Shown here: piece by piece, positions 1 through 12,571 of the stretch
Layout of the letters: each line of letters opens with the position of its first letter
Position numbering within the stretch: the first letter of the stretch is position 1
Source of the DNA: Vermamoeba vermiformis
Lineage: Eukaryota
Assembly (NCBI GenBank): GCA_045837725.1
Contig: JBEWZL010000306.1
Span: 248,001 to 312,000, forward strand
DNA: 64,000 nucleotides
Direction: 5' to 3'
Notes under the pieces: model-generated
Databases searched by the model: none
Told to the model about the DNA's origin: nothing
Seen by the model: the letters and a program-made list of their open reading frames with translations, nothing else
Position numbers and translations under genes: made by a program

Positions 1-2794
1 CGCCAAGTAAGTTCCTGACTGCTTTACAAATGCTTCCAATCTGGTCTAATCATCCCATCCATTAGGTCGGGGATGTGATCGTATTCGATGACCTGCACAT
101 TCTCGGTGTTGGCAATGCTGAGGGCGAGTCGGTGCAACTTGACTTCTTCTTATATAACATTGTTGGAACTACCCCTACTTTGCTTGCTACACGCAGATCC
201 CCTCCAATCACGGTGTACAATCACTCGCAGTATTTACCTGGTATGTTCTTCCTACACTATACAAACATTAGCTAATAGTAGCTGTACAGCACCTAACATC
301 AGCAAGTTGTTACCTAACTGGGCTATTGCTGGTACTCGCCCCAAAGTGGATGCCTTCGGTCCTTTGTTCCTTCGTAAAAATAATATCTTGGAGTGCCAAG
401 TCGTCGACGAACAAAACAAGGAGATCGCCTTGCTGAAAGGCACTTCTATTGTGCGCAAGAGAAACTGCTTCCACTCATTCTCGTTCGTGGCACCAGAACA
501 TCCAGCTGGCCGCGTATGGATCCGTGCACGTTACAAGGATCGTGACTTTGGCGAAGCTAAACCTTTTGAATACTGGCGTAAGTACCACTTTTTACTTTTG
601 AACGCCGTTGTGCTTCTGCAGTCTCAAATCCGTACGAAAACGAAATTTGATCTAAATTGTCATCTCGCGCGAAAAACCCCCAATCAAGACGTCGCTTCTT
701 CGCAGATTAGCACGAACAGCGAGAAGCTTCAAAAAATTTAGAGACATTTCAAGCAATTTCATCACGTGCCATTCTGATTTTTTCGGTCCCGAACGTGTAT
801 TTTTACGAAGAGTTCAAAAACGTGTTACCGTCAATTGTCTTGGGGTACTGCTGATGTGCACTAGCTAACCGATATTTATTTATCGAATTTTTTCTGTACG
901 CGAAGTGCAGATTAGATTCGGTAGTTTGTTTCCTGTGTGCATCTTGACATTAACGATAATCAATTAACGAAATTCGGAAATTCGCTAATTTTTATCGCAA
1001 AAATATAGTGCCGCCGACTCAAGGACAAAATTTAAACCAGCAAACCATTCAAACGAATTCTCAAAGACCGAACTCATCTAACATAATGGATCCGTCAAAC
1101 TTAGCTCAGCAATCGACAAATACGATGGGATTCCCTAGTAACTTTTATTCGAATGTCGGTCAATTCAGCTATCAAGGCAACATTCACTCTTTGAAGGTAA
1201 TTTTGATTTTAGCGGCCCTTCGCAAATTTTCGCGAGGAGAGCGGACAGAAGATTTTTCCTTCTATTCATAATTGAAATATAATTTAATTATCGTCGAATA
1301 ACAATAAGCTAAAAAATCGAATTAGTATTGACTTTTGGGTTTTAGGCTGCTTTGGATCAATTTTCAGATCAAGCAAAAGATGCGATCAACCAACGTGACA
1401 ATAATGGATGTACCTCCTTGTTTTGGGCATGCCAAGCTGGTCACTCGCCCGTCGTACAGCTTTTGCTCGAACGCGGCGCTGATCCAAACGTTAGCAACAG
1501 AAGAGGAGAAACTCCGTTACACGCAGCTTGTGCCAATGGCTCAACGGCTTCAATCAAGGCTCTGCTAGACAAGGGTGCCCGCTCACTAACTACTGATAAC
1601 CGCGGCATGACAGTATTGCACCACGCTGCTCTCAATGTAAGTTTGATCTCGCATCAGGGATTGGTCCCGCGACTCACACAATTGTCGTTTAACCTGATGG
1701 ATCAATTTCTTAACTTTTTGATAAAGGGCCACTTGGATGCTGTCAAGTGCTTGTTTGACAACGTCGAGGCTGAAGATCTTTTGTGCGTCAAAGATCGTGA
1801 AGGTATGCTGCCTCTTCACGCTGCCATTGTCTCAACAAACTTGCCCGTCACTCGCTTCATCCTCGAGCGTATGGTCGAGCTCGATGAGCCTTTGGACCGA
1901 AAGGACAAATCCGGCATGACTCCTCTGCATCTTGCCGTCAGCATGAACGACGAGAACATCACTCCCTTGTTGGTCTTCTACTTGAACCAAACTCAGAACA
2001 TCAATGCATTCAATGCTCGCGACGACAGCAAAGAGACTCCCTTGTTCTACGCTGTGCGCAACGGCAACACCAACTTGGCACGCTTTTTGTTGCAGAACAG
2101 AGCTGACGCCAATCTGCTCAACTCTGAGAAAGAAAGCACGTTGTTCGTCGCAGTGCGCGAGAAGAACGAAGATATGGTGCAGTTGCTGCTCGAGATGGGT
2201 GCGGACACCAGCATCCGAAACATGCGCGGTGAAACTCCCTTCGAGGCTGAAGAGATACCTGAGCCCGTTACCAAGCCGCGCACGTGGCCATTGACCCAGT
2301 TGACCCCTGCCAAGCCCGCTGCTGTCCCTACTTCTGGCTCACCAACCTCAACCAACACGACCACTCCTGTCATCAAGGTGCCGTCTCCTCAGGCCACACC
2401 CAAGGTCCAGCCCACTACTTTCACGCCAACACCGACTCCTTCATCGACCAACTTGGCACCTTTAGTCACTGGTCCTACTACCAAGCAGTCACCCGTCTTG
2501 TCGCCTGTTAGCCCGACCAGGCTGGGCATCACCGACAGCACAATCGAGTACATCACACGCGAGTTGGGAGGTCCTAAGACGAGCATCACGACACACAACA
2601 AAGAAGAGACCGCGCTCATCATGCAGCTCGATCGACTTCAACAGGAGATGCGCGAGCGCGACAAGCGAGAAGAACAGTACAAGTCGAAGATTATTAGCTC
2701 AGAACAAGAGATGTTAAATATGAAGGGTCAGATCGAAATGTTGATGAAGCAGGTGCAGAACCTCACTGCTGTCATGGCTGGAGATCGAGTGTAA
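1..2794 (+). CDS. 5'-truncated protein: end of a putative Ig-fold DNA-binding domain, IPT/TIG domain, about 7 ankyrin repeats, P/T/S-rich linker and C-terminal coiled coil
   Basis: Exons about <1-6, 66-240, 290-577, 1008-1196, 1346-1636, 1727-2794 with GT-AG introns. Spliced protein reads ...SPPITVYNHSQYLPAPNISKLLPNWAIAGTRPKVDAFGPLF...EAKPFEYW (IPT-like), then GETPLHAAC, GMTVLHHAA, GMTPLHLAV, ETPLFYAV ankyrin motifs. Confidence 0.8.
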
Positions 2795-3016
2795 TATAGT
2801 TGTGCAATGCGAAATTATTTATAAAATAGAAGTTTTTGTAATGTAATATAGATGCTTTACCGCGCCTTTTACTAAGCTTCATTGTCGTAAAAGAGCATCC
2901 AACGGAAAGTTGGTCAGTTTTCCAGCCGGAACAAAATTTCATCAGGTCGACAGCTTGTGTTTTTGGCGAGCAGCGGATTATCATATTTATTAATTTGAAT
3001 AACACACAGCGATACA

Positions 3017-4700
3017 ATGTCGTTAAACTATCAAGATCACCAGCGCACTAGATACTGGCGCACGCACGGTGAGATCTATGATTTTAGAAAAGAAAGAGTC
3101 GTTAACAGAGTCACTATCGAGGAAAATAGAGAAAAGGTATTATAACTCATTGATAAGCAGCTGTTTGACGTTAAAATTAAAAACGCATTCGACCTCGAAA
3201 TAAAAATCTTTGATAAATCTCCGTATTTCACCTAGTTAACGAAAGATAATAATAATATATATTCTTTAAATGATATTACAAGCATAATTTCCTTTTGTAA
3301 TCTTATTTTGAGCACACCAAGATATTTTATACAAATTTGAATTTTATTAACCACCTGCTTGATCTAACTATTTACTCGTCATAGAAACGCGAAGAATTAA
3401 AAGAAACAGCTCTTGAGCGTAGATTAAGACACGAACAATTATTGCGTGAACGAGATGCTGAGTTGGAAAAGATCAGACGAAGAAAGGAAGAGGAACGCAG
3501 AGACAGAGAAGAAGAGCGTAGAAAAAAGCAAGAAAGAGACGAGTAAGCATCAATATACAATTATAATACGATATTTAGCAGATCTACGTTTATAAGTTGA
3601 CCATATTTTTAATATCGGTTACGAAAATATTGTTGACGATCTTTTTTGCATTATTATCCAAATAGCGATAGTATACAAATTGGAAATTATATGTTAGACC
3701 CAAATTAATACCACATTCAGTTGCAAGGCATTTTCTTTGCCGTTGAACTTTTTTGCTCTGTGTTTATTCGCTTGACGTGTAATTACCGAATTATCGATAC
3801 TAATGATATTACCTGCAGGCGATTGCACGCTAAGGCTGAGGATAAAAAGAAATGGTACGAACAAATTGAAGACAGAAGGAAGGTCCGTGAGGAGCAAGAG
3901 GCCAAGAGCCGTGCTCGTTCAAAGGAGTTGACTTTGACCTTGATAAACAGGTACGTTAATATGCAATGCCTAGTCTTATTCCGACGAATGCGGTAAATGT
4001 GTATTCAAACTATGAAAGTTGCGAATCCACAACTTGTCAAAGAATTGCACTTCTTACTTTACTCAGAATACTATATATTTTGCCACCACTATAATACTAT
4101 CGAGGCCAGCTATAATGTTGGCATGTTATTGATTATGTTGGCTTTTTAGAGACGCTGAGAGAGCTGCTCGAACTAAGACTCGCCCCGAGACCAAGAGCTA
4201 CAGCAGCACTACGAGCACTTCAAGCTACACTCGCAGCACTCCTTCGACCAGTGCTACTTCTAGCCGATCATCTGCTTCGAGCTCTGTTGTGCCTCGTAGC
4301 TCTTCTCGCGTTGGATCTGACACCAAGACTACTTCGTCCTCTTCCTTGCCCAGATCTTCCAGCCGAGTTTCCTCTTACGTGTAAGTACATTATATACTGG
4401 CAAAACATAATATATCTGTTATAATTAATGCCATATGAGTGCTTTAAAGCTCGTGTAATGGCTGATCTGATCTCGTACAATCAAACATTATTTACATGAT
4501 AGCTAATGCGAGAATTATATAGGCCTCGTGCTACTAGCTCAGTCTCGCGTGGTTCATCGTCAGTTAAGTCCTCTGCTGACTTTGATTCTACTCCAGTGGT
4601 CGTCGACTCTACTTCTGCTGTTGAAGAGAGCGCTGTTGTTACTGCCCCTGAGCCCGTTGTCGAGTCTCCTGTTGAGAACGGCGCTGAAGCTGTCGCTTAA
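3017..4700 (+). CDS. Hypothetical protein with charged (E/R/K) coiled coil and Ser/Thr-rich tail, 5 exons
   Basis: ATG 3017 (MSLNYQDHQRTRYW). Exons about 3017-3137, 3384-3542, 3819-3950, 4150-4379, 4523-4700 with GT-AG ends. Contains KREELKETALERRLRHEQLL...; TAA at 4698-4700. Confidence 0.65.
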
Positions 4701-5048: not shown

Positions 5049-7992
5049 ATGGACACTTTAAGAGGTATAATTATTTTAACGATATAATCAAATATAATAT
5101 AATCATAATACATCCTTCTAGACCGAATTACGCCCATTCAACTCAATTAATTTTTCAAAAATTCAGATCTTGATAGTTTAATTTATAATTTGCTTTTAAA
5201 GGTATCGATACGATGCAAAAATATTTATGATAATTTATAGCTTTATTCGAAAACCTGATTGTAGTGGCATTCGATTCCACCCCGTGCGATGAAACCTCTT
5301 CGCCACTGGGCACTGAAATCACTGAAATGGCGTGGCTGACCTACGATATGGCTCTACATCAAGCAATTAATACGAAGCAGTTCTTCATTAAGCCAGATTA
5401 CGCACCGAAAGTGCTGGGCGAGAGACCGATCCTCAGATCCGCTTCTCCTTTGAAAGACGTCATTCAACAGGTATGTGTGGCCACTAATAGCTCTCATTCA
5501 AATATAACTATAACCAATCCGGTGCTATAAACTAATTTTTAAATGATTTTCATTACAAAATTACTAATGCTGGATCTACCCAGTTCGACAATTACATTAC
5601 CAGCTTAACGAAGGTTGGCAAGTCATATTGCATCATAACGGACGGCTTCTGGGAGCTAAAGCAAGGATTACGCGAAGAGAGCAGATCTAAAGGGATCAAG
5701 CTTGGCACTCATTTCAATAAGTTCTTCGACATCAAAATTGAATTTCTGAGAACTTATCCACGCGTACAAGGCATTGATATGTCATTGAACTCGATGATCA
5801 CAGGTACGATCTTAATACAATGTTTTCTGAAGTACTTTTATTGATTGACTCGATCAGCTCTCGGAATGCATCCGCTCGAAAGAAATTCAGCACTTGATGA
5901 TTGCAAGTCAATGGTCATATTAATTGAAAGGATGAATAAGGATGGTAAGCATCAAATTAACAAAAAATGTCGTTTTTTTGACACGTGTCCAGGTCACTCT
6001 TTCAATTCACCGGAGGTCCTGCCTGAGAGCTTTAATACGACCGTGCCACCAGCGCAATCTTTGCAAAGGCACCTATATTATATATTCCATATTGGGTCTC
6101 GGACTAAATGCTTTCTATTATAGTTCTACTGTTGTCAAGTTACGAGGTTTACCCTGGGAAGCTGACGAGACTGCATTCGAAGATTTTTTCAAAGTAATTA
6201 TATCGCGTCTATTGGTGTTAATATGACTAAAACTTGCTCTTTTCAGCAAGCGGAGCTAATGCCAGTTGACGCGCTCGTTGTGCTCAATCACCAAAATCGT
6301 CCATCAGGCCTCGGATTCGCTCGCTTTGCTACTGCCGATGAAGCACAACGCGCACTCGTGTGTCACAAACGATACATGGGCCACAGATTCATTGAAGTGT
6401 TCAGGTGTCTCGACGCTGATTACGATCGAATGGTGGCAAAAGGACACGGCTACAAACGCGTCGTTCACAAGCAAGCTGGCACGGGTGTTGCCGCTTCAGC
6501 AGGCACTATCATTGACACTAACCAGTTGATTGTCAATGCACCACAACAACAGCAACAAGAGTTTGTGGTCAAGTTACGTGGCTTGCCCTGGTCGAGTAGT
6601 GTGGCTGACATCCAAAGGTACGACATTAAACACAGCTCATACCATCAATATGCCTTTTATAATACCGAGTGAGTATTAATCTAACTGAATTTAGGTTTTT
6701 GGAGCCTCTGTTAATTCCAGCACAAGCTATTCACATTCAATTCACGGCCGATAACCGGCCTTCTGGCGAAGCATTTGTTGATCTGACGAGTGAAGAGCAA
6801 GTGCAATTGGCGCTCAAAAAGCATCGTGAGATGATGGGTCCAAGATATGTCGAAGTGTTTCGTAGCTCTCGTCGCGACACTGGCGCTGTACAACCGGCAG
6901 CTGTGCCTGTCACAACTCTTCCTGGCATTAGTACTGTGCAGCCACGCGCCATGCCGGCCACCGGCTTGATGACACCTGGCCCGGTCGGCGGATTGGTCGT
7001 TGCGAACACGAACCTTCCAGGCATCGCATTGACACCTGTCACAATGGTGCCTCCGCAGATGCACATTGGTGGTGTGCCAATGACAGCTCAACAAGGCCTC
7101 GTCATGGCATCGCACAACCCTTTTGCTGCAGGACCTGTAAAGGCTGAGACGGGCCAGCCAATGATGAACATAGCACCTTCTGTCGGCACTCGGTACGTTA
7201 AGTCAATAATGCTCCAGAAATGCTGTCGTGCTAATGTGCCACGTGACAGAAATTTTGTGATCAAAATGCGAGGTATGCCGTGGACAGCAACAGAACAAGA
7301 CATTGCTGCCTTCTTTGATCCGTACCGAGTCATTAGTGCCACGACACTCAGAGACAAGTTTGACCGTGCTACTGGTACGATTGAAACCACTTACCGGTGT
7401 ATCTTGTTCGCTAATTCGTGATTTGTACCACTCTTAGGTGAGGCTCTAGTCGAGTTTGAGAACGACGATGTGACAAACAAGGCCATGTCTAAGCACAAGG
7501 GCATGATGGGCACGCGTTACATCGAGTTGTTCCGCGTGTCACGTGCTGATTTGGCTAGTGCGAGCGGTCCTGTTGCACCGACTGGCGGTCCTGTTCCTAA
7601 GCGAGAGCGACCTGTTCAAGGCCCTAACATGAACAAAGGCTCTGGTGTAAGTGCATTATTGCCATATATAATCATATCAGTATAGTGACAATCACTGCAG
7701 GTCACGTTGAAGATGCGTGGGTTGCCGTATCATGCTACGGTTGATGATGTGGCGGAATTTTTCAAGGGTTACAAGTACGATCTATATTACTATACTATTT
7801 TAGTTGCTGGTGTATTAATTGCGATTTTAATTCAGTTTTGTTCGGGAGTCAATTCGGTTTGGCACGTGGAATGACAAACCGTCGGGCGAGGCGTGGGTGA
7901 CATTTACGACGAATGACGAGGCCAATAGTGCATTGGCTGCGAAACAACACGATTACATAGGCAATCGATACATCGACTTGTTTTTGGTTTAA
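5049..7992 (+). CDS. ESRP/Fusilli-like RNA-binding protein: DnaQ/DEDD exonuclease-like N-terminal domain plus four quasi-RRMs
   Basis: N-terminal LIVVAFD...EITEMAW...[25 protein letters not shown]...FFDIKIEF...GHSFNSPEV parallels the ESRP1 N-domain. Four [20 protein letters not shown]...G.A.V.F...RY(I/V)E(V/L)F qRRM motifs. About 11 exons. Confidence 0.85.
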
Positions 7993-8126: not shown

Positions 8127-10068
8127 TTACATTATTCGCCTCGACTTAGCGATCATCTGCATCCTCTTCTGGCTTTCTTTTCTGTCAGTTTGCGCAGTTG
8201 GCATAGTTTCCTTTGAAGGCGGTGGTACGTAGAAATCAGGAGCACGAAAAATCATGTCAGGATTAGCGTCCCAATCGTTCGTTTTGAAACAAGTGTTGTC
8301 GAGTTCTTGGTTGCATGCAGTTTGATTGAACACAGGGTGCAGACATTCAAGCAGCTTCTCGCCTTTTTCTTCATCGGTAAGTGTTTTGTTCAAATTGAAG
8401 CTACTGCGACACACGAACACACGCTTTTGATCGCTGAACTGGTTGAGTACTTGGCACACACCAGCATGTGTTTCACGTGCGTGAATGATGTGCACTGGGC
8501 CGTGCAAGATCATCGTTTGTTGGTGCGAGCGTTGCGAACCCCACTCTATGGTATCAGGTAGATCAATAATTGCCCAGGTTTATGTGTTATCTTGCTGTGC
8601 TTACCTTCTCCATCTCCCGGTGCGAATCTCAATGCATGAGTGCTGCGGGTACGACCAATTGTGACTTCTTCTTTGAGTTTTTGCATCGCTCCGTACAATC
8701 TGCCTTGATCGTCACCTGTCATGTCAGCGTCGAATTCATCGAACCACTGTGCCATCAGCTTTCTCGTTCTTTCGTTCCATTTCCATGCGTACACTCCACA
8801 ATCAGGAATGATCATGTCATGTGGCCAGTGTCCTGTAATCGTGAAATCGAACTCGTGTGAGTCCATGAACTCGAAGAACGACTCCATTGAGAGACAGCTC
8901 CACGAGTCTGCATCGACAAATAAGGAAATTCTTGCAGGTGCGAATGATGAGAAGATGACTCGTGTCGTCCATTGACGTTCGTTATTGAACATGAACTCTT
9001 TTCTGATACCAATTATACGATCAAATAATTCATCTTTGTCAACGAAGCTTCGATCAGAAGTGAAGAGTATCAATTTGACTTTCCCGCCTTTTGGATGATT
9101 TTTTCGGTAAGTTTTTGCTGAGGCAATCGCTTCTTTAAGCGCATTTTTCAGCCCCGATGGCTTTGGATTGTACGCGAAGAAGTTGATGCTGTATCCGTTC
9201 TTTGGAATATGCTTCGCGTACTGGATCTGAAGTGCCACATCGTCTCGATTGCCATAGTTGATCTGAGGAATGAAGCCACTGCAGAACTGTTCTGAACAAT
9301 TGGTGTTCAAGAAAGCGTTCGTTCTATTATACACATAGTGTTCGCTCCAAAGAGCCTTGGTCGAAGTCTTTGTGAACATTCTGCTGGCCAACCAGGCTGC
9401 TTCCCAGATGTCTTCCGAGTCCAATTCTCCAAAATGGACAAAATCGCACTGATTTAGCCTTTGATCGAATGCAAACTGTGCCAATGCTTCTTTGAGGTAA
9501 CCATTCGTATTCGGTTGGTTCGTACCATGCACCTACAAAAAAAAAGAACTCAATTTCGAAGCTTTAAAATTCGTAATTATTACGCTAAGTTGCGTCATAC
9601 ATCGTGGTTAAATGGAATATTTAAGCTTTGAGGGTTAAATCTTTAAATGAATATTAAAAAAAAAATTGTAGCGGATCAACTCGATAGGAACAACTTGTGA
9701 ACTCCTACCCCTGACCCTACTGCCTCTTCAGAATTGATTATAAATATTTCGTAATGAGATTGATTATGATCCTGGCTGTATTTGATCCATTCGTCAAGTA
9801 CCGCTGCTTGAAGTCCGATTAAACAGATAGTACGGGAGAGATTCGTATTATTATTGCTAACGAAGCCGTCAATAATGTCTTGAAGCAAATATTGTTTGAT
9901 TGGCTCTGGCTCGAACGCTGGTTTAGGAGGTTGCAACTCTTCTTCCGGATTGTCTTCGGTGGATCCTTCTTCAGATCTGAACCATTCTGGATGGCGATAG
10001 CCCAGCATAACCACAATGATGCATATTGAAGATAAGAAAAATATTATTTTTTTCTTCTTTGTGGTCAT
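8127..10068 (-). CDS. Type II membrane GT-A fold glycosyltransferase-like protein, copy A
   Basis: MTTKKKK followed by a single TM anchor; DxD-type motif LFVDADSW, DCGVYAW and GDDQGRL; multi-exon. Confidence 0.7.
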
Positions 10069-10392: not shown

Positions 10393-12571
10393 TTACATTA
10401 TTCGCCTCGACTCTGCAATCATCTGCATCCTCTTCTGGCTTTCTTTTCTAGCAGTTTGTGCTGTTTCCTTCGAAGGCGGTGGTACGTAGAAATCAGGAGC
10501 ACGAAAAATCATGTCAGGATTGGCTTCCCAATCGTTTGTGTCGAAACACGTGTTGTCGAGTTCTTGGTTGCATGCAGTTTGATTGAACACAGGGTGCAGA
10601 CATTCAAGCAGCTTCTGGCCTTTTTCTTCGTTGGTGAGTGTTTTGTTCAAATTGAAGCTGCTGCGACACACGAACACGCGCTTTCGATCGCTCAGTTGGT
10701 TGAGTACTTGACACGCACCAGCGTTCGTTTCACGGGCATGAATGATGTGCACTGGACCGTGCAAGATGTGCGTCTGTTGATGAGGACGTTCTGGACCCCA
10801 ACCTGACAATACATTAGTACTACTCAAACTCTCAGAAGAAAATGTTTGCAGTCTCGATCTGTTCGCGCGACCGGTGAATCTCTCGTCACTCGTAGTAAAG
10901 GTCACCCACGTGCCAAACCGAATTGACTCCCGTGAGGAAGAGAATCAAAATGGAACGCGGTTGTCTTGAGACTGATGAAGTGTAATGGTGCTTACTTTCT
11001 CCGTCTCCAGGTGCGAATCTCAGTGCATGAGTGCTGCGAGTACGACCAATCGTGACTTCTGCTTTGAGCTTTTGCATCGCTCCGTACAACCTGCCTTGAT
11101 CGTCGCCTTTCATATCAGCGCCGAACTCGTCAAACCACTGTGCCATCAGCTTTCTCGTTCTTTCGTTCCATTTCCATGCGTACACTCCACAGTCAGGGAT
11201 GACCATGTCATGGGGCCAATGTCCTGTAATCGTGAAATCAAACTCGTGTGAGTCCATGAACTCGAAGAACGACTCCATTGAGAGACAGCTCCACGAGTCA
11301 GCATCGACAAATAAGGAAATTCTTGCAGGTGCGAATGACGAGAAGATGACTCGTGTCGTCCATTGACGTTCGTTGTTGAACATAAATTCCTCTTTGATTC
11401 CGACAATACGATCAAAAAATCCATCGGTGTCGACGAAGTTTCGATCAGACGTGAAGAGCATCAATTTGACTTTCCCGCCTTTTGGATGATTTTTTCGGTA
11501 AGTTTTTGCCGAGGCGATTGCTTCTTTGAATGCGTTCTTGAGCTTCTCCGGCTTCGGATTATACGCGAAGAAGTTGATGCTGTATCCGTTCTTTGGAATA
11601 TGCTTCGCGTACTGGATCTGAAGTGCCACGTCATCGCGACTCTTAAAGTTGATCTGAGGAATGAAGCCACTGCAGTACTGCTCCAAACAGTGCGCATCTA
11701 CGAAGGCGTTCGTCTTATTATAGCTATATTGTTTGCTCCATAAAGCCTTCGTTGAACTCTTCGTGAACATTCTGCTGGCCAACCAGGCCGCTTCCCAGAT
11801 GTCGTCGGAACTAAGTTCTCCGAAATGCACAAAATCGCATTGATTTAGCTTTTGGTCGAATGCAAACTCTGCCAATGATTCTTTGATGTCACCATTCGTT
11901 ACGTGGACCTAAAAGTCAAAAAAGGATCAGTTTTCATTAGTTTGCGGTTGCAATTTTGCAGAGCGGAAATATTTGAATTATTAGGTATGAAAATTGAGTT
12001 ATAATAATATGATTAAGCGACAAAATAGTTCCGGAAATGGTAAAGGATGATCCGAAATAAAAGAAAACACAGGCAGGTCACACACATCCCCGGATGCCGG
12101 TGACACAAGTTTTACCTGGTATATGTGGGATTTATGTATATATCAAGCATTGATATGTTAATCTATGTGCTAGATGCGAATTGATGTCACAATTTGTGCG
12201 TAAAAAGAGAAATCAAAATTGTGGCATCCATCCGCATTTCCGTATTTTTAGTTATAACTTACCTCTTTTGATTTCATATCTAAGCCATCGACGGAGCCAA
12301 TAGCGAACACGTTAAATAGCGACTTGTTATTGCTGTTGACGTATTTAATCCATTCATCCACAATTGGTGTCTGGAGTCCAACTAAGCAAATATTGCCGTG
12401 ACTGTTATTAACAAATACATTAAATATCTCTTCTCGCACTAATGCTACGTCAAATGGTGCAGCATCCTCTCGTGGTGGGTCAAACCACGCAAGATAGCGG
12501 TAGTTCACCATAATAGCTATAATACATAACAAAGCCACTACGAAGACTAGCTTCTGCTTCTTTGTGGTCAT
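10393..12571 (-). CDS. Type II membrane GT-A fold glycosyltransferase-like protein, copy B (tandem paralog)
   Basis: Same motifs and same last intron position as copy A. Catalytic region nearly identical; N-terminal stem diverged. Confidence 0.7.
10882..10932 (-). repeat. Inverted copy of part of the last ESRP-like exon (7843-7920) inside an intron of glycosyltransferase copy B
   Basis: Reverse complement CGGGAGTCAATTCGGTTTGGCACGTGG GTGACCTTTACTACGAGTGACGAG matches the exon with a 27-nt internal deletion and 3 substitutions. Confidence 0.85.

Follow-up and report, generated by a model that had tools for sequence, protein, structure and literature searches.

Does a gene outside the opisthokonts encode a transcription factor laid out like an NF-kB precursor? 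The question is raised by positions 1-2794 of a 64,000-nucleotide stretch of Vermamoeba vermiformis DNA (assembly GCA_045837725.1, contig JBEWZL010000306.1, positions 248,001 to 312,000, forward strand; hereafter the window). In the available excerpt of a survey of 180 species by Pfam Rel domains, Rel homology proteins are traced back to the base of Opisthokonta (PMC8763368), and the accessible part of a second account restates an opisthokont-stem origin (PMC13366479). A sequence-only reading of the window had proposed an NF-kB-like succession of an Ig-fold DNA-binding domain, an IPT domain and an ankyrin array, in a transcription factor, possibly self-inhibited or processed, of an undescribed protist class. 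We found that window 1-2794 (+) covers roughly the 3' two-thirds of a multi-exon gene that is expressed and whose product belongs to a conserved family. With a probability of roughly 55%, we favor the view that this protein, judged largely from predicted models, would be a dimeric, signal-regulated, sequence-specific DNA-binding regulator of Rel/velvet-like architecture.

The gene model comprises the following parts, in which amino acids are abbreviated aa, nucleotides nt, and X1, X2 and X7 are public sequencing runs:

1-6 (+): end of the upstream exon (..HRQ); the same six bases close the public-contig ends before 66, and a GT stands at 7-8.
7-65 (+): intron, 59 nt, GT..AG; the contigs carry exon sequence upstream of 66 instead of window 7-65.
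66-240 (+): exon encoding the last 58 aa of the conserved N-terminal domain (N-domain), ending ..RRSPPITVYNHSQYLP, from the family alignment and models of the relative P0003.
241-289 (+): intron, 49 nt, GT..AG; joint 239/289 (cut +1) in X2 and X7 contigs.
290-577 (+): exon encoding the predicted IPT/TIG domain, 96 aa, from VIA structure matches.
578-1008 (+): intron, 431 nt, GT..AG; joint 577/1009 in X1 and X7, retained in one X2 contig.
1009-1196 (+): exon encoding a Q/N/S-rich low-complexity linker, recognized by composition and with no Pfam match; its last ~13 aa begin the ankyrin N-cap.
1197-1345 (+): intron, 149 nt, GT..AG; joint 1194/1344 (cut +2) in X1, X2 and X7.
1346-1636 (+): exon encoding the first two ankyrin repeats and the opening half of the third (Pfam Ank_4 1.6e-20, Ank_2 3.2e-20).
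1637-1726 (+): intron, 90 nt, GT..AG, in frame; joint 1636/1727 in X1, X2 and X7.
1727-2233 (+): first part of the last exon (1727-2794), ankyrin repeats 3 (second half) to 7 (Pfam Ank_2 6.5e-25; family alignment).
2255-2539 (+): last exon, P/T/S-rich spacer, recognized by composition and varying in length among relatives.
2603-2794 (+): last exon, C-terminal coiled coil of ~60 aa, from a heptad count and a C-terminal pattern conserved in the family alignment, with the stop TAA at 2792-2794.

Splicing was read from contigs of X1, X2 and X7, presumed RNA runs whose contigs lack the introns, aligned to window 1-2900; no read of a fourth run, X24 (raw RNA), aligned there, which has no bearing on the model. 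Four modelled introns are excised exactly in these contigs, at the joints listed above. The intron at 7-65 is a fifth, because the X2 and X7 contig ends before 66 close in the bases of window 1-6; these ends encode ..KEQNFVEHRQ, and the counterpart in P0003 is ..KDQSFVEHRQ. All five introns are of the GT..AG type, and the exons from 66 onward (exons 1 to 5 below) sum to 2010 nt, encoding 669 aa plus the stop. The open reading frame (ORF) 1346-2794 reads straight through, since intron 1637-1726 is in frame and holds no stop. A single X2 contig of 3118 nt spans 66-2757 plus 717 nt further upstream, with intron 578-1008 kept. All exons occur on this one contig, so exons 66-577 belong to the same spliced molecule as the ankyrin exons, as the sequence-only reading had supposed. 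In relatives, too, assembled transcripts (MMETSP for Trichosphaerium, Trinity for Cavostelium and Soliformovum) hold all parts in one protein. Contigs extend to 2812, so the 3' untranslated region is at least 18 nt long. The window product aligns with P0003 starting from P0003 residue 205; by analogy with this relative, the rest of the gene, ~200 codons, probably lies upstream of the window and would encode a variable N-terminus and the missing ~75 aa of the N-domain, the domain starting near a ..L-D-D-x-E-Y-P-F-P.. motif. Another relative, P0001, is 97% identical over exon 2 and 95% identical over 215 aa of the spliced product, and it shows the exon 1/2 and exon 2/3 junctions (..YLPAPNISK.. 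and ..FEYWLPP..).

At 2475, in the P/T-rich spacer, each of the three contig sets departs from the window in length by 3 nt, and 30-odd single-base differences are scattered between 101 and 2758. This looks like strain or allele variation within the same species, sampled in 10 studies.

The encoded parts follow one another as the end of the N-domain (58 aa), an IPT/TIG domain, a Q/N/S-rich linker, seven ankyrin repeats, a P/T-rich spacer and a C-terminal coiled coil. The spliced translation contains the string LLATRRSPPITVYNHSQYLP, and the 96 aa after it take the IPT fold in a VIA search with a relative's predicted model; the protein then continues ..FEYWLPPTQGQN.. beyond the IPT domain. Searched against Pfam at E<=1, exons 1-3 gave no match, TIG included, and exons 4 and 5 matched nothing but ankyrin families (E 1e-20 to 1e-25). 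The linker is 63 aa long (Q 16%, N 16%, S 14%), and the ankyrin array comprises seven repeats and an N-cap by manual count on the translation. The spacer (residues 476-590, starting slightly before 2255) is 21% T and 19% P. Over the last ~60 residues, 13 of the 20 heptad a/d positions hold L, I, V or M. There is no transmembrane segment, because the highest 19-residue Kyte-Doolittle mean is only 1.18, a peak that falls within one of the ankyrin repeats; the coiled coil that ends the protein is charged. Translation, Pfam, composition, hydropathy and predicted fold thus bear out the earlier description of an IPT-like domain, a Q/N-rich linker, about seven ankyrin repeats and a coiled coil without a membrane anchor. 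Basic residues cluster at just two places, residue 114 (RKR) and residue 372 (RKDK), and Pfam found neither an SH2 nor a death domain in the window exons. Against PDB sequences, the ankyrin part matched 386 distinct entries at E<=1e-5, led by ankyrin-1 (9.8e-58) and including NF-kB p100 (1e-18); as sequence matches these are generic and do not discriminate between families.

Relatives of this protein share its design. A search with exon 2 returned 18 proteins at E<=0.01 among 73 candidates, mostly ankyrin-bearing, 660-900 aa long and 56-75% identical, and a profile of the N-domain and IPT domain (A1) returned 25 proteins at E<=0.001 among 1.84 billion representatives, with distant members at 1e-8 to 1e-13. 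Full-length relatives measure 660-1400 aa and are annotated only as hypothetical or ankyrin repeat-containing proteins. Of 11 scanned members, 9 have ankyrin repeats behind the N-domain and IPT domain. Every member with a name comes from Amoebozoa, namely from Trichosphaerium, Tieghemostelium (two paralogues), Cavenderia, Heterostelium, Cavostelium or Soliformovum. A tree of 26 rows splits into three clades: the core one, with the window protein and Trichosphaerium, one of Cavostelium and Soliformovum, and one of dictyostelids. Of the 669 residues of the window product, 665-667 align collinearly, up to the C-termini, with P0003, P0011 and P0008 (the Trichosphaerium transcript), and identity to P0003 is 44% over 710 columns. 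By sequence comparison, then, this is an unannotated family, so far only in Amoebozoa where members are named; the 'undescribed protist class' of the sequence-only reading is to be narrowed accordingly. We found no description of such a family in the literature, in a search that covered articles and left aside the species tables supplementing PMC8763368. A word-based search with A2 (17 rows of N-domain and IPT domain, distant clades included) among longer proteins gave 18 matches and no further clade. In a search of proteins of 681-2169 aa, residues 374-607 of the dictyostelid P0028 matched only three, from Tieghemostelium, Heterostelium and Cavenderia, and none from D. discoideum, which is weak evidence of absence. 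A further relative of 3183 aa, P0038, contains numerous weak repeats whose matches are confined to the second half of the IPT profile (9 stretches; 18 weak domain rows) and is probably an unrelated IPT-repeat protein.

Conservation is uneven along the family. In a full-length alignment of 18 core members (A3), 82 columns are invariant. The N-domain and IPT domain are the most constrained part because they hold 58 of the 82, against 23 for the ankyrin repeats and 1 for the tail. The N-terminus of the family varies, with a short coiled coil in some members, and the linker is variable in A3 and glycine-rich in other clades. Two prolines, P13 and P26, are invariant in 17 of 17 A2 rows, and the spacing between them is equal in all but two. 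The aligned N-terminal loop that they bracket reads P-[FY]-P-x-(12 residues)-P and carries only 1-3 basic residues, as read by eye from the alignment. The stretch between the two domains, ..N-H-x-x-x-L-P-A-P-x-I.., is also conserved. In eight core-clade relatives of the window protein the IPT domain is basic (isoelectric point, pI, 8.5-10.1), and dictyostelid members carry an insert rich in K close to where the IPT domain ends. An SH2 domain follows the ankyrin repeats and coiled coil in Soliformovum P0035 (Pfam 1.6e-7), a member of the clade that it forms with P0042 (also Soliformovum) and P0030, and was recognized by eye in the Cavostelium member P0030. The SH2 in the Soliformovum member is compatible with a STAT-like factor or an adaptor alike.

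The first ~75 aa of the N-domain fall outside the window, so P0003 was modelled in place of the window protein, over 233 residues that are 74-75% identical to window exons 1 and 2. The two-domain AlphaFold2 model had a predicted local distance difference test (pLDDT) score of 85.5 and a predicted TM-score (pTM) of 0.73; the N-domain alone (132 aa, 17 sequences including distant clades) reached 92.1 and 0.86. In Foldseek, NF-kB p50, NFAT1, p65 and p52 lead the matches to the two-domain model (E 1.9e-7 for 1svc_P to 5e-6), and NF-kB or NFAT chains make up the best 10 rows and 28 of the 39 listed, the others being tandem Ig proteins. A VIA search, which does not depend on Foldseek, assigned residues 131-231 to the IPT/TIG fold and matched residues 1-128 to velvet, Runt and Rel-N domains. 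Both domains together matched p52 (7cli_A) at Z 11.0 over 205 residues at an rmsd (root-mean-square deviation) of 10.3 A, so the orientation of the domains differs from that in p52. The IPT part matched EBF1 (Z 11.8, 87 aa, 1.9 A), the RelB/p52 dimerisation domain (11.1), the CAMTA1 TIG domain (2cxk_A, 11.1, rmsd 1.9 A, 86 aa), NFAT1 RHR-C (10.8), the DBB domain of BCAP (6sws_A, 10.5) and the Ral-binding IPT domain of Sec5 (1uad_C, 10.1).

The N-domain was closest to velvet. VIA ranked the VosA velvet domain first (4n6r_A, Z 11.8, 115 of 132 residues, 2.4 A, 16% identity), ahead of VeA (10.8), Runx1 (10.0), p52 Rel-N (9.1), p65 (9.0), TonEBP (8.4), STAT1 (8.3), Dictyostelium STAT (8.1) and RBPJ (7.7). 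The best 12 rows (11.8-7.7) are all transcription-factor DNA-binding domains, and unrelated beta-sandwiches begin at Z 7.6. Foldseek agreed, with VosA at E 9.7e-7 (TMq 0.63) and transcription-factor chains in 40 of the 41 listed rows. The available excerpt of the VosA structure paper gives the likeness of VosA to p50 as 2.8 A over 113 residues with 13.7% identity (PMC3876986), and the match of the N-domain to VosA is of the same size. On its predicted model, the N-domain belongs structurally to the beta-sandwich DNA-binding-domain class (velvet, Runt, Rel-N, STAT, CSL), as the sequence-only reading had proposed in calling it an Ig-like DNA-binding fold. Two further families came up in the VIA searches. 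Ebf1 (3mlp_A) was matched only through its IPT domain and not its DNA-binding domain, which does not exclude EBF/COE, and p53 scored Z 6.7 with the N-domain, within background.

Since the predicted N-domain fold is Ig-like and all exons lie on one spliced contig, the order of DNA-binding-type domain, IPT domain, linker and ankyrin repeats is real. The NF-kB-like layout of the sequence-only reading therefore stands at the level of fold, with p100/p105 nearest, and it lacks a significant Rel, velvet, CG-1 or TIG sequence signature. A Rel homology region (RHR) fold, with an Ig-like N-domain directly followed by an IPT domain, is present on the predicted models, and so, as layout only, is the NF-kB-class succession of a low-complexity region and C-terminal ankyrin repeats. 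The part order (Ig-like DNA-binding-type domain, IPT-type domain, low-complexity linker, ~7 ankyrin repeats) is the same in NF-kB p100/p105 and in the non-metazoan Rel/NF-kB-like proteins of Capsaspora, ichthyosporeans and Parvularia, which, like the window protein, have no death domain; the excerpt of the 180-species survey describes this order without a death domain for non-metazoan NF-kB proteins (PMC8763368). In contrast to NF-kB, the amoebozoan proteins have an extra C-terminal coiled coil and P/T-rich spacer and hosts outside Opisthokonta, and their N-domain spans ~130 aa compared with ~180 for Rel-N. Rel proteins carry S-x-P-I at the end of the DNA-binding domain. The velvet regulators VosA, VelB and VeA are similarly compact and, on the predicted model, the closest structural match to the N-domain; they dimerise via the velvet domain itself, a seven-stranded beta-sandwich with helices, and are not known to have an IPT domain or ankyrin repeats. 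The N-domain would also share its fold class with the RUNX Runt and STAT DNA-binding domains. In neither RUNX nor STAT is the DNA-binding domain known to be followed by an IPT domain or by ankyrin repeats; STATs share a C-terminal SH2 with one family clade, which the window protein lacks.

We favor a DNA-binding regulator because of the fold class of the N-domain, the adjoining IPT domain, the succession of linker and ~7 ankyrin repeats, and the constrained, proline-bracketed loop. DNA binding, dimerisation, cis-inhibition and processing are what we infer from this fold and layout. The protein may dimerise through the coiled coil, perhaps also through the IPT domain. DNA could be contacted by the constant-length N-terminal loop between the two invariant prolines, by the conserved inter-domain linker (..NHSQYLPAP..) and by the basic IPT domain. 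The loop between the prolines would occupy the position of Rel loop L1 and of velvet loop A. In VosA, according to the available excerpt, loop A (K37, K39, R41, K42) binds DNA (PMC3876986). The ankyrin array would regulate the protein in cis, as in NF-kB p100/p105, by masking, by holding it in the cytoplasm or by docking partners, with possible release by limited proteolysis at the low-complexity linker.

Several observations weigh against this interpretation. The folds come from models of a relative that is 75% identical over the shared part, and a shared fold alone is no proof of function. In sequence searches at E<=10 over 17 fragments of N-domain and IPT domain, Pfam returned RHD in 0 of 17, Velvet in 0 of 17 and TIG in 2 of 17 (best E 0.05), and neither RHD family (PF00554, PF16179) was matched in the window exons (E<=1) or in five full-length members. 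The A1 and A2 profiles found no Rel chain among PDB sequences, their best matches being a thioredoxin (E 0.63) and an EF-hand protein (E 0.52). The Rel recognition-loop motif, R-x-R-Y-x-C-E-G, is absent from the aligned loop; the accessible text of the 180-species survey describes the Rel recognition loop as conserved (PMC8763368). Language-model features of the N-domain alone do not return RHD, whereas those of the N-domain plus IPT domain of P0007 place RHD_DNA_bind and RHD_dimer as the top clusters (score 0.91, 197 shared features). In all eight core-clade members measured the N-domain is acidic (pI 5.1-5.9, with 15-19 D/E and 11-15 K/R), and the window protein has no cluster of four or more K/R after the IPT domain that would resemble a nuclear localization signal (NLS). 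Finally, IPT domain, ankyrin repeats and coiled coil also occur together in cytoplasmic adaptors such as BCAP, whose DBB domain is among the structural matches. By sequence-defined tests the family is thus outside Rel/NF-kB, velvet (PF11754, found only as a fold on the predicted model), CAMTA and Mga2/Spt23, while in fold and layout it has the features of the RHR and of NF-kB precursors; it has the look of a p100-type protein without demonstrable membership. For the N-domain alone, the best language-model cluster was DG1062_N (Pfam 38, PF28397; 0.85, 162 shared features), a lead only, followed by the weaker leads of CBP60-type Calmodulin_bind and LAG1 DNA-binding clusters (0.85 or lower). Our local Pfam copy, which probably predates the DG1062_N model, gave no match to it, and no paper on DG1062 was found.

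The likeness to adaptors leads to a different reading, in which the protein is a cytoplasmic scaffold or signalling adaptor whose beta-sandwiches and ankyrin repeats bind proteins and whose coiled coil oligomerises. The BCAP/BANK1/Dof adaptors combine a TIR domain, a TIG-like DBB domain, ankyrin repeats, a proline-rich region and a coiled coil. The BCAP and Sec5 matches to the IPT part, the acidic N-domain, the P/T-rich spacer, the absence of an NLS-like cluster from the window protein and the SH2 of one clade, which suits phosphotyrosine signalling, all agree with such a role. We nevertheless consider it distinctly unlikely: a DNA-binding-type beta-sandwich, not a TIR domain, precedes the IPT domain, and Pfam found no TIR or other adaptor domain in five full-length members. 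None of the 12 best VIA matches to the N-domain comes from an adaptor, the Foldseek rows are nearly all transcription-factor chains, and the arrangement of N-domain to IPT domain is best matched by Rel and NFAT chains. A divergent member of the CAMTA (CG-1, TIG, ankyrin, IQ) or Mga2/Spt23 (IPT, ankyrin, membrane anchor) families, which share the succession of TIG/IPT domain and ankyrin repeats with the amoebozoan proteins and, for CAMTA1, a close TIG match, is very improbable. Neither CG-1 nor IQ was found by Pfam in the window exons (E<=1), five full-length members or 17 fragments (E<=10), and no hydrophobic segment (maximum 1.18), hence no anchor, is present in the window protein. CAMTA and Mga2 have two to three ankyrin repeats, and the amoebozoan array has seven. 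No solved CG-1 chain turned up in the fold lists, which does not exclude the CG-1 fold.

If the protein does bind DNA, its likeness to NF-kB p100/p105 could still be convergent, an old velvet/Runt-type sandwich having been joined to IPT domain and ankyrin repeats independently in Amoebozoa, just as IPT-ankyrin pairs arose in CAMTA and Mga2/Spt23. We regard this as a serious possibility, somewhat short of even odds. It accords with an N-domain that resembles velvet (Z 11.8) and Runt (Z 10.0) more than Rel-N (Z 9.1), with the missing Rel sequence signature, with the lack of a death domain and of an NLS in the window protein, and with the recurrence of IPT-ankyrin pairs in unrelated factors, of which the CAMTA1 TIG match is a reminder. 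The 180-species survey, in the excerpt available, found RHRs only in Opisthokonta (PMC8763368). That survey relied on Pfam domains, however, and Pfam is blind to the amoebozoan family. Common descent is also favored over convergence by the agreement of the whole part order with non-metazoan NF-kB proteins and by the lead of NF-kB and NFAT among the two-domain Foldseek matches.

We read the family as a new variant of the Rel/velvet class that is of interest for the origin of NF-kB. The velvet proteins, described as restricted to fungi, are presented in the accessible part of the VosA paper as a fungal family whose NF-kB-like fold is unexplained (PMC3876986). Because a velvet-like N-domain, an IPT domain and a p100-like ankyrin tail are joined here, both the relation of velvet to Rel and the age of the ankyrin-inhibited precursor become directly testable. 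We propose tentatively, as a somewhat unlikely scenario, that the amoebozoan family is one branch of an ancient superfamily that also yielded Rel/NF-kB/NFAT (Holozoa, nucleariids) and the fungal velvet proteins, with the precursor layout already in the ancestor of Amoebozoa and Opisthokonta. If so, an NF-kB-type cis-inhibited transcription factor would be older than the 'onset of opisthokonts', and velvet would be explained as a form that lost the IPT and ankyrin parts. In any case the family is conserved, expressed across Amoebozoa and invisible to Pfam, and were it to act as a scaffold in the cytoplasm, it would remain a well-delimited domain family lacking annotation. NF-kB-like immunoreactivity was reportedly observed in Dictyostelium by Traincard and colleagues in 1999. 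Dictyostelids are open to gene disruption, and the members in Cavenderia (DFA_01025), Heterostelium (PPL_01417) and Tieghemostelium make nuclear entry, processing and DNA binding amenable to experiment.

The window also holds neighboring genes; no tRNA gene was found. The next gene downstream begins with an ATG at 3017 (+), ~220 nt after the stop, and spans 3017-3950, with AT-rich introns and highly charged K/E/R-rich exons (e.g., 3385-3546, which had no Pfam match, and 3830-3950). Exons at 6166-7421 (+) encode an RRM-type RNA-binding protein, with a weak Pfam RRM_1 match (E 4.5e-4) in 6663-7421 and RRM-like strings recurring in frames nearby. Further on, ORFs 8546-9532 (-) and 10886-11908 (-), which had no Pfam match at E<=0.001, are 84% identical over 322 aa and form a tandem duplicate of unassigned family. 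The small ORFs 8127-8579 (-) and 10393-10944 (-), just downstream of each long copy, also look alike.

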